Assembly: GCF_055900595.2 (NCBI RefSeq)
Contig: NZ_CM148325.1
DNA length: 64,000 nucleotides
Direction: 5' to 3' (one strand)
In this document: positions 28,815 to 34,143 of the stretch, in pieces
Layout of the letters: each line of letters starts with the position of its first letter
Position numbering within the stretch: position 1 is the stretch's first letter
Notes under the pieces: generated by a model
Databases searched by the model: none
What the model was told of the DNA's origin: nothing
The model's input: the letters and a program-made list of their open reading frames with translations, nothing else
Made by a program: the position numbers and the translations under genes

Positions 28815-30020
28815 ATGACGGAACAAGAAAAAACCTCCGCCGTGGTTGAAGAGACCAGGGAGGCCGTGGACACCACGTCACAACCTGTCGCAACAGAAAA
28901 AAAGAGTAAGAACAATACCGCATTGATTCTCAGCGCGGTGGCTATCGCTATTGCTCTGGCGGCGGGCGTCGGTTTGTATGGCTGGGGTAAACAACAGGCC
29001 GTCAATCAGACTGCCACCAGCGATGCCCTGGCTAACCAACTTACGGCACTGCAAAAAGCCCAGGAGAGCCAAAAAGCCGAGCTGGAAGGCATTATCAAGC
29101 AACAAGCTGTACAGCTTGAGCAAGCGAATCGTCAGCAAGAAACGCTGGCAAAACAGCTGGATGAAGTCCAACAAAAGGTCGCGACTATTTCCGGCAGCGA
29201 TGCTAAAACCTGGCTGCTGGCTCAGGCTGATTTCCTGGTGAAACTCGCCGGAAGGAAGCTGTGGAGCGATCAGGACGTCACGACCGCTGCAGCGTTGCTG
29301 AAAAGTGCAGATGCCAGCCTGGCGGATATGAATGACCCGAGTCTGATTACCGTTCGTCGGGCAATTACCGATGATATCGCCAGCCTTTCTGCGGTATCGC
29401 AGGTGGATTATGACGGCATCATCCTTAAGCTGAACCAGCTTTCTAATCAGGTAGATAACCTGCGTCTGGCCGATAATGACAGCGATGGTTCACCAATGGA
29501 TTCCGACGGTGAAGAGCTTTCCAGTTCCCTCAGCGAATGGCGTATCAATCTACAAAAAAGCTGGCAGAACTTTATGGACAACTTCATTACGATTCGCCGT
29601 CGTGATGACACCGCCGTACCACTGTTAGCACCGAATCAGGATATCTATCTGCGCGAAAATATTCGCTCCCGCCTGCTGGTCGCGGCACAAGCCGTACCGC
29701 GTCATCAGGAAGAGACTTACCGCCAGGCGCTGGAGAATGTCTCCACCTGGGTACGTGCTTACTACGATACTGATGATGCCACCACCAAAGCGTTCCTCGA
29801 CGAGGTGGACCAGTTAAGTCAGCAAAATATCTCGATGGATCTCCCGGAAACCCTGCAAAGCCAGGCGATGCTGGAAAAACTGATGCAGACCCGCGTGCGT
29901 AACCTGCTGGCACAACCGGCAGCAGGGACAACGGAAGCTAAACCTGCACCTGCACCTGCACCTGCACCTGCACCTGCACCGCAAGCTGATACTCCGGCAG
30001 CCGCGCCGCAAGGAGAATAA
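28815..30020 (+). CDS. hemX: HemX (membrane-anchored, coiled-coil and PA-repeat protein; putative uroporphyrinogen-III C-methyltransferase)
   Basis: 401-aa [28 protein letters not shown]... with a transmembrane segment ([22 protein letters not shown]), a Q-rich coiled-coil and a C-terminal (PA)n tract. Confidence 0.9.
29942..29971 (+). repeat. Hexanucleotide tandem repeat (ACCTGC)x5 inside the hemX 3' end, encoding (Pro-Ala)n
   Basis: Five perfect tandem copies, ACCTGCACCTGCACCTGCACCTGCACCTGC, translating to [10 protein letters not shown]. Confidence 0.9.
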
Positions 30021-30022
30021 CC

Positions 30023-31219
30023 ATGCTAAAAGTGTTATTGCTCTTTGTGTTGCTGATTGCGGGGATCGTGGTCGGCCCGATGATTGCCGGTCATCAGGGG
30101 TACGTGCTGATCCAGACCGATACCTACAATATCGAAACCAGCGTCACGGGCCTGGCGATCATTTTGATTCTGGCGATGGTAGTGCTGTTTGCCATTGAGT
30201 GGCTACTGCGGCGGATCTTCCGCACAGGCGCACACACCCGTGGGTGGTTTGTCGGACGTAAGCGTCGCCGTGCCCGTAAGCAGACCGAACAGGCGCTGCT
30301 GAAACTAGCGGAAGGCGATTATCAGCAAGTTGAAAAGCTGATGGCGAAAAATGCCGATCACGCTGAACAACCGGTGGTGAACTATCTGCTGGCTGCCGAA
30401 GCCGCGCAACAACGCGGTGATGAAGCACGCGCCAACCAACATCTGGAACGCGCAGCGGAGCTGGCCGGCAACGACACAATTCCGGTAGAAATCACCCGTG
30501 TACGTCTGCAACTGGCCCGTAATGAAAACCATGCAGCACGTCACGGCGTTGATAAGCTGCTGGAAGTTACGCCACGCCATCCGGAAGTATTACGTCTGGC
30601 GGAACAGGCGTATATCCGCACCGGTGCATGGAGTTCGCTGCTGGATATCATCCCATCAATGGCAAAAGCCCACGTTGGCGATGAAGAGCATCGTGCAATG
30701 CTGGAACAACAGGCATGGATTGGCCTGATGGATCAGGCGCGTGCCGATAACGGTAGCGAAGGTTTGCGTAACTGGTGGAAAAACCAAAGCCGGAAAACGC
30801 GTCATCAGGTGGCGTTACAGGTGGCAATGGCGGAACATCTTATTGAATGTGACGATCATGATACTGCCCAGCAAATTATCATCGACGGCCTGAAACGCCA
30901 GTATGACGATCGCCTGCTGCTGCCGATCCCGCGTCTGAAAACCAATAACCCGGAACAGCTGGAAAAAGTGCTGCGCCAACAGATCAAAAACGTGGGCGAT
31001 CGCCCGTTGTTGTGGAGCACACTGGGTCAGTCGCTGATGAAGCACGGCGAATGGCAGGAAGCATCGCTCGCCTTCCGCGCGGCGCTGAAACAACGTCCGG
31101 ACGCCTACGATTACGCATGGCTTGCCGACGCGCTGGACAGACTGCACAAGCCGGAAGAAGCCGCAGCGATGCGTCGCGATGGCTTGATGCTAACCTTACA
31201 GAATAACCCGTCACAGTAA
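30023..31219 (+). CDS. hemY: HemY (TPR-containing inner-membrane protein of the hem operon)
   Basis: 398-aa ORF MLKVLLLFVLLIAGIVVGPMIAGHQGYVLIQTDTYNIETSVTGLAIILILAMVVLFAIEW..., the last gene of hemCDXY. Confidence 0.95.
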   Translation: MLKVLLLFVLLIAGIVVGPMIAGHQGYVLIQTDTYNIETSVTGLAIILILAMVVLFAIEWLLRRIFRTGAHTRGWFVGRKRRRARKQTEQALLKLAEGDYQQVEKLMAKNADHAEQPVVNYLLAAEAAQQRGDEARANQHLERAAELAGNDTIPVEITRVRLQLARNENHAARHGVDKLLEVTPRHPEVLRLAEQAYIRTGAWSSLLDIIPSMAKAHVGDEEHRAMLEQQAWIGLMDQARADNGSEGLRNWWKNQSRKTRHQVALQVAMAEHLIECDDHDTAQQIIIDGLKRQYDDRLLLPIPRLKTNNPEQLEKVLRQQIKNVGDRPLLWSTLGQSLMKHGEWQEASLAFRAALKQRPDAYDYAWLADALDRLHKPEEAAAMRRDGLMLTLQNNPSQ

Positions 31220-31222
31220 TCT

Positions 31223-31252
31223 ATATCGCCTCGTTCAGAGGCGATATTTTTT
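31223..31252 (+). terminator. Rho-independent terminator of the hem operon
   Basis: ATATCGCCTC–GTTCA–GAGGCGATAT hairpin followed by TTTTT, starting 4 nt after the hemY stop. Confidence 0.7.
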
Positions 31253-31258
31253 ACCAGG

Positions 31259-31858
31259 ATGTCAAAATTGCGCACGCCGTCCCGCTATCTTTTCCGCTTG
31301 CCATCGCATGAAATTACTCCTTTTCGGGCAACGCTCTTTTTAATCTTGTTGATATGTGCCGCTCTGGCTGGCGTAAGTTGGCTGATTATTTCCTTTGTGC
31401 GTACGGGCAATACATTCATCTTCTGGTTAACACTTTTTATTGGGTATCTGATAGCTGCGGCGAAGCAGGAAAAAATCAAGCTCCTCAAGAAGTACCGAAT
31501 CATGGCAGATAAACGTCGGGTACGCTCCATTTGCCAGTTCGCCCGCGAATTTGACACCTACACCGTAGATACATGGGTGATTCGTGCGGTGTGGGATACC
31601 TTGCAAGGAAACGGCTATATCGATTACCCACTGCCACTGAAAGCCGATGATATACTGGACGATGATCTGGATTTGGTGCGCGACGCAGTCGAGTTAGAAG
31701 AGCTGGTTGAAGATACCGCTGCTCGTTGCGGGCGCGATCTATGCGGAATAGAAGAGAATCCGTTTCTTCCCATCGTCACGGTAGGCTCTCTTGTAAGAGT
31801 TTTAAACGCGCAACCGATGACCCAGGAGCGACGTAACCAGTTCTTTATTCGGTCATAA
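31259..31858 (+). CDS. Hypothetical membrane-anchored protein (two predicted transmembrane helices and an acidic cytoplasmic domain); function unknown
   Basis: 199-codon ORF starting 7 nt after the hemY terminator T-tract, with its stop (TAA, 31856-31858) overlapping the 3' end of GlmZ on the opposite strand. N-terminus TLFLILLICAALAGVSWLIISFV / FIFWLTLFIGYLIAAA; C-terminal acidic stretch DDILDDDLDLVRDAVELEELVED. Ordinary codon usage by eye. No convincing Shine-Dalgarno (only AGG abutting the ATG). I do not recognise the protein. Confidence 0.5.
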   Translation: MSKLRTPSRYLFRLPSHEITPFRATLFLILLICAALAGVSWLIISFVRTGNTFIFWLTLFIGYLIAAAKQEKIKLLKKYRIMADKRRVRSICQFAREFDTYTVDTWVIRAVWDTLQGNGYIDYPLPLKADDILDDDLDLVRDAVELEELVEDTAARCGRDLCGIEENPFLPIVTVGSLVRVLNAQPMTQERRNQFFIRS

Positions 31859-32063
31859 AAAAACGCCTGCTCTTATTACGGAGCAGGCGTTAAAACAGGT
31901 CTGTATGACAACAAGTGGGTGCTTCACTCAACGTTGTGTCCATGGTGTCTGATGAGGCATAAGCGACATCTGTCAGTGGACGATAAGCACCGTAAACGGC
32001 TCTGCGTCATTCCGGAGTTTATGAGGCACTAAGGCGAACATAAGAGATGGAATGAGCATCTAC
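31857..32063 (-). ncRNA. glmZ: Small regulatory RNA GlmZ (activator of glmS translation)
   Basis: Reverse complement of 31857-32063 reads GTAGATGCTCATTCCATCTCTTATGTTCGCC...AACGCCTGCTCCGTAATAAGAGCAGGCGTTTTTTT, matching GlmZ (207 nt) including its 3' terminator hairpin and U-tract. Lies between hemY and aslA as expected. Confidence 0.9.
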
Positions 32064-32487: not shown

Positions 32488-34143
32488 ATGGAATTTTCGT
32501 TTTCACCCAAACTTCTTGTTGTGGCTGTCGCCGCCGCTCTTCCACTCATGGCCAGCGCAGCAGATACCCCGTCAACCGCCACCGCACGCAAAGGCTTTGC
32601 CGGATACGATCACCCAAACCAGTATCTGGTTAAACCGGCGACCACTATTGCCGACAACATGATGCCGGTGATGCAGCATCCTGCACAAGACAAAGAAACC
32701 CAGCAGAAGCTGGCGGAATTAGAGAAAAAGACCGGTAAGAAACCGAACGTGGTTGTTTTCTTGCTGGATGATGTGGGCTGGATGGACGTTGGCTTTAACG
32801 GCGGCGGCGTGGCGGTGGGTAACCCTACACCAGATATCGACGCCGTTGCCAGCCAGGGGCTGATTTTAACTTCGGCGTATTCTCAACCGAGTTCTTCCCC
32901 AACCCGCGCCACGATTCTCACCGGACAATACTCCATCCACCACGGCATTCTGATGCCGCCAATGTACGGGCAACCGGGCGGTCTGCAAGGGTTAACCACT
33001 CTGCCGCAGTTGCTGCACGATCAGGGCTACGTCACCCAGGCCATCGGGAAATGGCATATGGGGGAAAACAAAGAGTCGCAGCCGCAGAACGTTGGCTTTG
33101 ATGATTTCCGCGGCTTTAACTCGGTATCCGATATGTATACCGAATGGCGTGATGTTCATGTCAACCCGGAAGTCGCCCTGAGCCCGGATCGTTCTGAATA
33201 CATCCAAAAACTGCCGTTCAGCAAAGATGACGTTCATGCCGTGCGCGGCGGTGAACAGGAAGCCATTGCCGACATTACGCCGAAATATATGGAAGACCTG
33301 GATCAACGCTGGATGGAATATGGCGTTAAGTTCCTCGACAAGATGGCGAAGAGCGATAAGCCTTTCTTCCTCTACTACGGCACTCGCGGCTGTCACTTCG
33401 ATAACTACCCAAATGCGAAATATGCGGGTAGCTCTCCGGCGCGCACCTCTTACGGCGACTGCATGGTGGAGATGAACGATATCTTCGCCAATCTGTATAA
33501 AGCACTGGAGAAAAACGGTCAGCTTGATAACACGCTGATTGTGTTCACCTCTGATAACGGTCCGGAAGCTGAAGTTCCGCCGCACGGTCGCACGCCGTTC
33601 CGCGGTGCGAAAGGTTCTACATGGGAAGGCGGCGTTCGTGTGCCAACCTTCGTTTACTGGAAAGGGATGATCCAACCGCGTAAATCTGACGGTATTGTCG
33701 ATCTGGCGGATCTCTTCCCTACGGCGCTGGATCTGGCAGGACATCCTGGAGCGAAAGTGGCGAATTTAGTGCCGAAAACCACCTTTATTGATGGTGTGGA
33801 CCAGACATCTTTCTTCCTGGGAACAAATGGTCAGTCTAACCGTAAGGCCGAGCACTACTTCCTCAACGGCAAACTTTCTGCTGTGCGTATGGATGAGTTT
33901 AAATATCACGTACTCATCCAACAGCCATACGCTTATACCCAGAGCGGGTATCAGGGTGGATTCACCGGCACAGTAATGCAAACGGCGGGATCGTCGGTGT
34001 TTAACCTGTACACCGATCCGCAGGAAAGCGACTCTATCGGCGTGCGCCATATCCCAATGGGTGTACCGCTACAGACCGAAATGCACGCGTATATGGAGAT
34101 CCTGAAAAAATATCCGCCGCGCGCGCAGATTAAATCTGATTAA
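32488..34143 (+). CDS. aslA: Arylsulfatase-like protein AslA (Ser-type sulfatase)
   Basis: 551-aa ORF with a signal peptide ([27 protein letters not shown]) and the sulfatase signature around [15 protein letters not shown] (S-x-P-x-R). Convergent with aslB. Confidence 0.95.

Follow-up and report, generated by a model that had tools for sequence, protein, structure and literature searches.

A strain-variable gene between hemY and glmZ of Escherichia coli and its predicted membrane-tethered product with a serine-less acyl-carrier-protein fold

The region between hemY, the last gene of hemCDXY, and the gene of the small RNA (sRNA) GlmZ was analysed in a stretch of 64,000 nucleotides (nt) from contig NZ_CM148325.1 of the RefSeq assembly GCF_055900595.2, which is referred to below as the window. 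A short protein-coding gene lies there. A preliminary description, made from the letters of the sequence without database searches, had placed an open reading frame (ORF) of 199 codons at 31259-31858 on the plus strand, between the hemY terminator and the 3′ end of GlmZ, and the ORF list, a terminator scan and the Rfam match to GlmZ all agree with that placement (Table 1). The hemY stop codon (31217-31219) is followed by a hairpin with a 10-bp stem, which folds at -19.3 kcal/mol (z = -4.2 against shuffled sequences), and by a TTTTTT tract that ends six nt before the ATG at 31259. At the other end, the terminator stem of GlmZ occupies 31862-31891 and therefore the TAA stop codon at 31856-31858 lies, as had been described, inside an A-run that is the U-tail of GlmZ on the opposite strand.

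The start codon had to be moved. Homologues from other genera begin with M-R-x-P-S-R, and the start conserved among them corresponds to a TTG at 31268, three codons downstream of the ATG at 31259; the allele found in sequence type 131 (ST131) has ATG at this position. The Prokaryotic Genome Annotation Pipeline (PGAP) calls the same TTG in a genome with 100% identity, where the product is WP_032304174.1, a 'hypothetical protein' of 196 amino acids (aa); the ORF is already in RefSeq, hence not new in itself. The gene so defined starts 16 nt past the T-tract of hemY, and its end is 4 nt away from the terminator stem of GlmZ. A clear Shine-Dalgarno sequence had appeared to be missing because the upstream ATG was taken as the start, whereas an AGGA box sits 8 nt before the TTG, and GGAG or AGGA boxes also precede the equivalent start in the ST131 allele and in two alleles of other enteric bacteria (loci L004 and L006).

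Table 1. Positions in the window of the gene between hemY and glmZ, the predicted parts of its product, and the adjoining features.
Feature	Coordinates	Strand	Basis
Gene under study, 196 codons and stop	31268..31858	+	PGAP coding sequence in a 100%-identical genome; homologue starts at MRxPSR; dN/dS 0.11-0.31
Conserved N-terminal motif (L/M)RTPSRYLF, predicted cytoplasmic	31268..31294	+	family consensus M-[RK]-x-[PA]-S-R-[FY]-[ML]-P; M1, S5 and R6 at least 90% conserved in 41 homologues; low AlphaFold2 pLDDT
Predicted transmembrane hairpin: TM1 (residues 21-43), 5-residue loop, TM2 (49-65)	31328..31462	+	Kyte-Doolittle peaks and charge distribution; AlphaFold2 helices
Basic juxtamembrane stalk, residues 66-86, net charge +8	31463..31525	+	charge; extends the second AlphaFold2 helix
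Predicted acidic cytoplasmic domain, acyl-carrier-protein fold without phosphopantetheine serine, residues 87-196, net charge -11, pI 4.2	31526..31855	+	
hemY (last gene of hemCDXY; upstream neighbour)	30023..31219	+	398-aa ORF; HemY annotation in identical and related genomes
hemY 3′ hairpin (31223-31247) and T6 tract, intrinsic-terminator-like	31223..31252	+	terminator scan; fold; homologous hairpins in L004 and L065
Shine-Dalgarno AGGA	31256..31259	+	read from the sequence; equivalent boxes in ST131, L004 and L006
GlmZ sRNA, convergent with the gene under study	31857..32063	-	Rfam RF00083, 218 bits, E 2.6e-57; terminator scan
aslA (arylsulfatase; downstream neighbour, context only)	32488..34143	+	551-aa ORF; aslA annotation in matching genomes

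The sequence at 31268-31858 is a real protein-coding accessory gene. Pairwise ratios of nonsynonymous to synonymous substitution rates (dN/dS, Nei-Gojobori) range from 0.11 to 0.31 among the alleles of the window, ST131, an Escherichia cryptic clade and L006, and from 0.10 to 0.67 when the N-terminal tail with the membrane hairpin, the stalk and the C-terminal domain are taken separately. The suggestion that it might be a degenerate remnant does not apply to the window copy, which is intact and evolves under purifying selection; frameshifted copies exist elsewhere, in some E. coli with the ST131-type allele and in E. albertii. A simple scan found no sigma-70-like promoter upstream of the gene, and with a terminator-like hairpin 16 nt before the start its expression in this strain is probably low and achieved by read-through of the hemY terminator from hemCDXY. 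After the hairpin of the GlmZ terminator the plus strand has just two T residues before A residues set in, so that read-through from the gene into the antisense strand of GlmZ is conceivable. The same hairpin is present in K-12, Klebsiella pneumoniae and Citrobacter freundii, where the gene is absent, and is thus the sRNA's own terminator.

The gene was expected from the preliminary description to be missing from K-12 and variable among strains, and is both. Of 5,426 complete E. coli genomes, 5,424 have the flanks and 693 the gene, always as a single copy and always annotated 'hypothetical protein'. Two alleles account for its occurrence in E. coli: the window type (at least 95% nt identity) in 104 genomes, and the ST131 type, with 87.9% nt and about 84% aa identity to the window, in 585-589. 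One of 689 matches to the hemY-gene locus is on a record typed as a plasmid, which is probably a mis-assigned or chimeric replicon. The annotation of K-12 shows no gene from the end of hemY to aslA; there, in O157 and in the rest, about 640 nt comprising the hemY hairpin and the gene give way to some 47 unrelated nt with a different hairpin. All listed gene-less E. coli have one common haplotype of 410-411 bp, also without the hemY hairpin. Comparison of the 47-nt filler of K-12 with the gene-region alleles gave no significant similarity (scores within the range of shuffles) and no deletion scar, and the loss event cannot be reconstructed at the level of the sequence.

Elsewhere in Escherichia, the gene follows hemY in the cryptic clade (L009) and in a cluster of E. 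fergusonii, E. marmotae and unclassified or cryptic-clade Escherichia (P0024), for which the order hemX-hemY-gene was read in L068. In that locus the next called gene past the family gene is an aslB-like radical-SAM (S-adenosylmethionine) gene (L068:3091-4146), and aslA appears to be missing. The E. albertii copy, at the same locus, is split by a 1-nt insertion into 80 and 118 aa, and the ST131-type allele is broken by the loss of one nt from a run of C, the resulting 108-aa product occurring in more than 400 contigs; these frameshifts indicate independent pseudogenisations, with a homopolymer sequencing error being possible for the ST131-type one. The frameshift sites were located near L060 position 4037 and L062 position 2905 (columns of about 340 and 194, respectively, in alignment A4).

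Beyond Escherichia, a K. aerogenes-type allele (L004; 39% aa identity) and another enteric allele (L006; 56%) lie between hemY and convergent GlmZ, while in K. pneumoniae (L065) and C. freundii (L064) hemY and GlmZ are found with neither the gene nor a remnant between them. A hairpin recognisable as that of hemY in the window (ATATCGCCTC...GAGGCGATAT) recurs in the K. aerogenes-type locus and in K. pneumoniae, which has no gene there; the hairpin is therefore one of hemY's own, and the place of the gene is between this hairpin and glmZ. The spacer of C. freundii (L064:3700-3805) has a repetitive-extragenic-palindrome (REP)-like element (GCCCGGTGGCGCTTTCGCTTACCGGGCCTAC) and a second long inverted repeat in the gene's place, and the gap between hemY and glmZ is thus generally plastic across enterics. 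In Kosakonia/Phytobacter, Superficieibacter and Enterobacteriaceae UBA5654 (L010-L013) the gene is at another convergent gap, between rlmC and artJ, and hence has relocated within Enterobacteriaceae. In these loci rlmC is preceded by potGHI and an ORF of 157 aa, and two of the loci have REP-like elements after the gene.

The history of the gene was compared with that of its neighbour through synonymous divergence. Between the window and the cryptic clade dS is 0.356 for the gene and 0.358 for hemY, between the window and L006 it is 2.0 and 1.6, and between the window and ST131 it is 0.29 and 0.15; dN of the gene is 5-45 times that of hemY in the same pairs of genomes. These values are most simply read as a long vertical inheritance together with hemY, a protein that evolves fast but under constraint, and repeated loss, with one loss haplotype now dominant in E. 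coli. The preliminary description had spoken of a cargo gene, and a recent insertion into a hemY-glmZ spacer that was ancestrally empty in E. coli was considered as an alternative. The gene-less spacers of K. pneumoniae and C. freundii, the location at rlmC-artJ in Kosakonia/Phytobacter and Superficieibacter, and the mobility of the family elsewhere (described below) would be compatible with an insertion, but it is rendered very improbable by an E. coli locus free of attC sites, repeats and scars of insertion and by the occurrence in Klebsiella of the same hemY hairpin that precedes the gene. Furthermore, all sampled non-coli Escherichia have the gene at hemY-glmZ, its dS matches that of hemY pair by pair, and gene-less E. 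coli represent a single haplotype that lacks the hairpin as well; for these three reasons, the variability is best explained by loss, the gene being ancestral at hemY-glmZ in Escherichia, where as in K. aerogenes it has long resided, and lost from most E. coli, including K-12.

The product had been called unrecognised, and it has remained so: its only annotation is 'hypothetical protein' and it matches no curated family. Searches of the window protein against Pfam, NCBIfam, PADLOC and PHROGs gave matches at noise level, and a sequence search of the PDB gave nothing below E 0.04. The literature yielded nothing useful on a hypothetical protein at hemY/glmZ, on WP_001260226, on membrane proteins resembling acyl carrier proteins (ACPs) or on DUF1493. 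Relatives are nonetheless plentiful. A first homology search collected 51 clusters with identities down to 28-40%, and a profile search of 1.84 billion representatives collected 1,124 clusters (at 50% identity) at E ≤ 1e-3, of which 489 at E ≤ 1e-30, spread over several phyla. Nearly all members have 165-200 aa and the same architecture without fusions. The sole long hit, the 354-aa representative of P0110, contains two full matches to the family profile and thus represents the entire unit with its hairpin, duplicated in tandem or fused. Ten residues are invariant in an alignment of 41 members (R83, I88, F91, D101, W103, I105, R106, A107, D128 and D139 in 196-aa numbering), and M1, S5 and R6 at the N-terminus are conserved in at least 90%. 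The listed members are all named 'hypothetical protein' except one with the automatic name 'acyl carrier protein', and none has a precomputed Pfam domain. The family is unnamed, large and uniform, and has no Pfam or NCBIfam model.

For the genomic context of the wider family, one genome per GTDB species was scanned, which provided 51 loci of at most 10 kb each from Gammaproteobacteria (Pseudomonas, Alteromonadales, Oceanospirillales-like), Burkholderiales, Alphaproteobacteria, Campylobacterota (Sulfurovum), Armatimonadota, Planctomycetota and others. No neighbouring gene recurs across these loci. In six of them the neighbours were matched to NCBIfam and PHROG models and found to be mixed: a gamma-glutamyltransferase, an RhtB-type exporter, a Rieske subunit, tetratricopeptide repeat (TPR) proteins and unannotated proteins.

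The two N-terminal hydrophobic helices, the acidic soluble domain and the CGRDLCG sequence noted beforehand are all present in the product, the hydrophobic segments being residues 21-43 and 49-65. A confident AlphaFold2 model based on an alignment of 14 sequences (predicted local distance difference test, pLDDT, 81; predicted template modelling score, pTM, 0.72) has two long helices at residues 21-49 and 52-85 (199-aa numbering), followed by a compact helical domain. The N-terminal tail carries a net charge of +3, the stalk after the second transmembrane segment (TM2) +8, and the C-terminal domain -11, for which the family median is -7. By the positive-inside rule both ends of the protein should be cytoplasmic, and an N-in/C-in topology is predicted. 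The product is accordingly modelled as a small inner-membrane protein of about 196 aa in which a short conserved N-terminal tail and a two-helix hairpin are followed by a basic stalk and by an acidic domain of four helices with the ACP fold. The possibility of a lipoprotein or signal-peptide N-terminus was rejected on inspection, since a lipobox is missing, the Cys varies among homologues, and a basic stalk downstream of TM2 favours a hairpin.

The C-terminal domain of the model shares its four-helix fold with acyl and peptidyl carrier proteins (PF00550) and differs from them in being attached to a membrane hairpin and a conserved N-terminal tail. Its helix II starts right after the invariant D139, which caps the helix and corresponds to the Asp of the D-S-L motif of ACP. 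The next residue, at the position of the serine that carries phosphopantetheine in ACP, is Ala in the window protein; among the 41 members it is Glu in 15, Asp in 13, Ala in five, Ser in three, Pro in two and Arg in one, so that 28 of the 41 relatives have an acidic residue there. Since this position is occupied by Glu, Asp or Ala, the domain is predicted to be a pseudo-carrier that cannot be phosphopantetheinylated. Real ACPs dock on their partner enzymes through the surface of helix II, and the corresponding motif of the family, D-[ED]-[ED]-D-L-[DE]-[DE]-L-V-E-E, is more acidic than that of ACP. By its modelled fold the domain belongs to the ACP superfamily, and by the serine and the profile match it does not; the fold is present in a new form, membrane-tethered, serine-less and self-standing. 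A true membrane-bound acyl or peptidyl carrier protein would account for the fold and for the automatic naming of some relatives' database entries as 'acyl carrier protein', but this explanation is close to refuted by the residues at the serine position, by the lack of PF00550 matches in the family, and by the 51 loci, in which no gene for a synthase, a ligase or a phosphopantetheinyl transferase (PPTase) recurs beside the family gene.

Two further likenesses were considered. The only Pfam family with any signal is DUF1493 (PF07377), an enterobacterial family that is matched by one of the 41 relatives at E 8e-4 and by three at E ≤ 0.1; its hidden Markov model does not match the window protein. 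DUF1493 proteins are soluble and about 115 aa long, and the searchable literature contains nothing functional on them. With the CptA/YgfX toxin and with class II holins the protein has in common a two-helix hairpin at the N-terminus, predicted to be N-in/C-in, and behind it a charged domain on the cytoplasmic side. The window protein differs from these in that it has an ACP-like domain and no antitoxin-like neighbour, and there is no significant sequence similarity; the Cpta_toxin match of one relative is weak (E 0.013).

Many of the 51 loci are runs of small ORFs on the same strand, and the repeats between the ORFs are attC sites, the recombination sites of integron gene cassettes. In L005 at least nine copies of elements of 64 or 85 nt start with TAACAA at the preceding stop codon and end with GGCGTTAG. 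In L043 at least ten copies of a 69-nt element, with GCCTAAC as R″ and GTTAGGC as R′, fit the RYYYAAC/GTTRRRY core sites perfectly and are present on both flanks of the family gene, and L045 has at least four copies of a 57-nt attC element. In five other loci (L039, L040, L049, L051 and L054) an attC begins within the stop codon of the family gene (A-C-G-TAA-C), and four (L023, L029, L031 and L035) have a probable degenerate attC. These calls were based on repeats, core sites and stop-codon position because a rule-based scan of whole loci was not specific, giving similar counts on both strands and matching 16 of 216 random windows. A sequence model of attC (R1), built from these sites, had all of its 33 matches on the gene strand and placed one further attC 16 nt before the L051 gene; as RNAalifold detected no consensus pairs when the attC sites were aligned, the model is one of sequence only, and it mostly finds its training types again. 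The loci cover the interior of the arrays and stop short of their ends, where an integrase gene (intI) and attI would be expected. Neither the rule-based scan nor the sequence model detected an attC at the window copy or at any enteric locus.

At least eight and probably about 12 of the approximately 45 non-enteric loci have a cassette-borne member, a fraction that is a lower bound because of the non-specific scan. To judge from these elements, many members of the family outside Enterobacteriaceae are integron gene cassettes, and the window copy is not. The distant members resemble the cassettes of sedentary chromosomal integrons in being promoterless single ORFs with an attC on the 3′ side, in arrays on the same strand, whereas the E. 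coli copy has no attC and lies outside any integron. An unexpected cargo of the L005 array is a cassette (L005:2167-2733) that matches the Rieske iron-sulfur subunit of ubiquinol-cytochrome c reductase (TIGR01416, E 1e-44, above the cut-off). The GlmZ terminator of the window (31855-31897, AAAAAAACGCCTGCTC...GAGCAGGCGTTAAAAC), the sole hairpin on the 3′ side of the ORF, was considered as a disguised attC or cassette scar, its AAC...GTT core resembling R″ and R′, and rejected, as it spans only about 41 nt and also occurs where the gene is missing.

The arrays bear on the possibility that the protein is an orphan immunity protein or antidote, the acidic domain of which would neutralise a basic toxin (a bacteriocin or an effector of contact-dependent inhibition, Rhs or type VI secretion systems) at the cytoplasmic face of the membrane. 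A small and very acidic helical domain with an isoelectric point (pI) of 4.2, fast protein evolution under overall constraint, the weak DUF1493 match of one member in 41, and the occurrence of members among small unrelated genes on the same strand are all traits that such a protein might have. However, no toxin gene adjoins the family gene in any of the 51 loci, DUF1493 is linked to no immunity in the searchable literature, and the small-gene arrays, once read as a polyimmunity island, proved to be cassette arrays when their inter-ORF repeats were recognised as attC sites; the explanation is highly unlikely.

The interpretation preferred here, with moderate confidence, is that a real accessory gene encodes a pseudo-ACP inner-membrane protein that serves as a self-sufficient, membrane-tethered protein-binding module with a niche-dependent role. 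The membrane hairpin would hold the pseudo-ACP domain against the inner leaflet, where the very acidic helix II would bind a basic protein partner at the membrane, and the conserved N-terminal peptide would adjoin this acidic binding surface. The protein would work alone, without a partner gene, because no neighbour recurs across the 51 loci. Its likeliest role would be a dispensable one in conflict or exclusion that depends on the niche, for example that it senses or sequesters, at the membrane, a protein that is foreign or toxic. One in lipid synthesis seems less likely. A role of the conflict type (exclusion, abortive infection or toxin neutralisation) appears most attractive because the cassettes of chromosomal integrons are a rich source of phage defence by single genes, small transmembrane proteins without a recognisable domain among them (bioRxiv 10.1101/2024.07.02.601686; 10.64898/2026.03.17.712381). 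The single-gene stress, defence or toxin-like function suggested in the preliminary description would draw indirect support from the cassette-borne distant relatives. With some validated defence cassettes (Brigantia, LDILCD_22380) the family has in common its small size and transmembrane segment, the traits by which they were compared.

Several results weigh against this interpretation. There is no homologue of known function. It is the modelled fold by itself that links the domain to ACP: none of the 41 members matches PF00550, and alignment of the family profile with E. coli AcpP by hhalign (E 0.055) covers 14 columns, with helix IV alone aligned. The T-tract terminator upstream may silence the gene in the window. 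As for a conflict-type role, no family of PADLOC-DB v2.0.0, a release that predates the integron-cassette defence systems described in 2024-2026, matches the window protein at E ≤ 1, and in the domain-wise test dN/dS exceeds 1 in no region of the protein. Among 20 large neighbours of family genes, two gave strong hits to defence models, two weak hits and 16 none. Searches with two family members (tblastn) found the gene in none of 50,697 phage records and in one of 72,556 plasmid records, the latter being an 801-kb chromid of Pseudoalteromonas; PHROGs gave no hits, and a fold search of viral proteins (BFVD) nothing below E 0.1. Finally, syntenic retention beside hemY over dS > 1.5 is atypical of defence genes, which turn over fast.

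A more specific proposal is that of a single-gene anti-phage protein in which the pseudo-ACP domain senses a phage product, upon which the hairpin oligomerises and depolarises or blocks the inner membrane in the manner of the holin-like effectors of other defence systems. In its favour are the cassette-borne members of the family and the documented status of sedentary integrons as reservoirs of defence cassettes, small transmembrane proteins among them; the lack of a conserved partner gene; the patchy distribution, with repeated loss and pseudogenisation; a protein that evolves about 5-45 times faster than HemY; and the predicted N-in/C-in hairpin, as in class II holins. A helicase resembling DpdF/PsyrT follows the family gene in Aliikangiella (L020:5588-7705; PADLOC E 1e-249) and a SoFic-type Fic protein precedes it in Duganella (L019:3617-4801; E 2e-25). 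The proposal is nevertheless unlikely in view of the missing PADLOC v2 and PHROG matches, the 16 of 20 large neighbours that hit no defence model, the stable synteny at hemY-glmZ across genera and the absence of positive selection at the level of domains. Doubtful too is a reading of the family as a new class of self-sufficient integron-borne effectors, in which the serine-less ACP fold would act as a membrane-tethered sensor or decoy, either triggering phage exclusion or abortive infection through the hairpin or titrating proteins that dock on helix II of ACP.

An alternative within the host's own physiology is a modulator of lipid or envelope synthesis, a tethered mimic of apo-ACP that would compete for PlsB, LpxA/LpxD or SpoT. 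Inhibition of PlsB and of growth has been reported for apo-ACP in E. coli; the predicted fold, the hyper-acidic helix II and the Asp of the DSL motif, the last two both conserved, would be appropriate to such a mimic, the predicted tether would place it at the inner leaflet, where clients of ACP act, and the gene has long been retained by vertical descent beside a housekeeping operon. It is, however, dispensable in K. pneumoniae, C. freundii and about 87% of E. coli, the presumed targets are conserved and evolve much more slowly than its own sequence, and spread in cassettes across phyla would be unusual for a regulator tuned to a host enzyme, so that this role is distinctly improbable.

What has been obtained is a well-described hypothetical protein with a clear structural identity and not the discovery of a mechanism. 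The preliminary interpretation stands as to a real, strain-variable gene that K-12 does not have, and is not supported as to a remnant, a cargo gene and a missing Shine-Dalgarno sequence. The predicted architecture, a carrier-protein fold unable to carry and anchored in the inner membrane, is unusual, and it recurs in at least 1,100 clusters at 50% identity, which join the pool of unassigned integron cassettes that has been the source of several recent phage-defence genes. Because K-12 and O157 are without the gene, while non-coli Escherichia and ST131-type E. coli have it fixed, work on laboratory strains has never sampled it; the pandemic and clinically important ST131 lineage keeps a chromosomal copy of what K-12 has lost. 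Its presence or absence also alters the transcriptional surroundings of GlmZ, a well-studied sRNA. Further upstream in the window, HemX (28815-30020) has a Pro-Ala repeat near its C-terminus, and its length varies from 391 to 407 aa among the fetched loci, suggesting a polymorphism in the length of the repeat.

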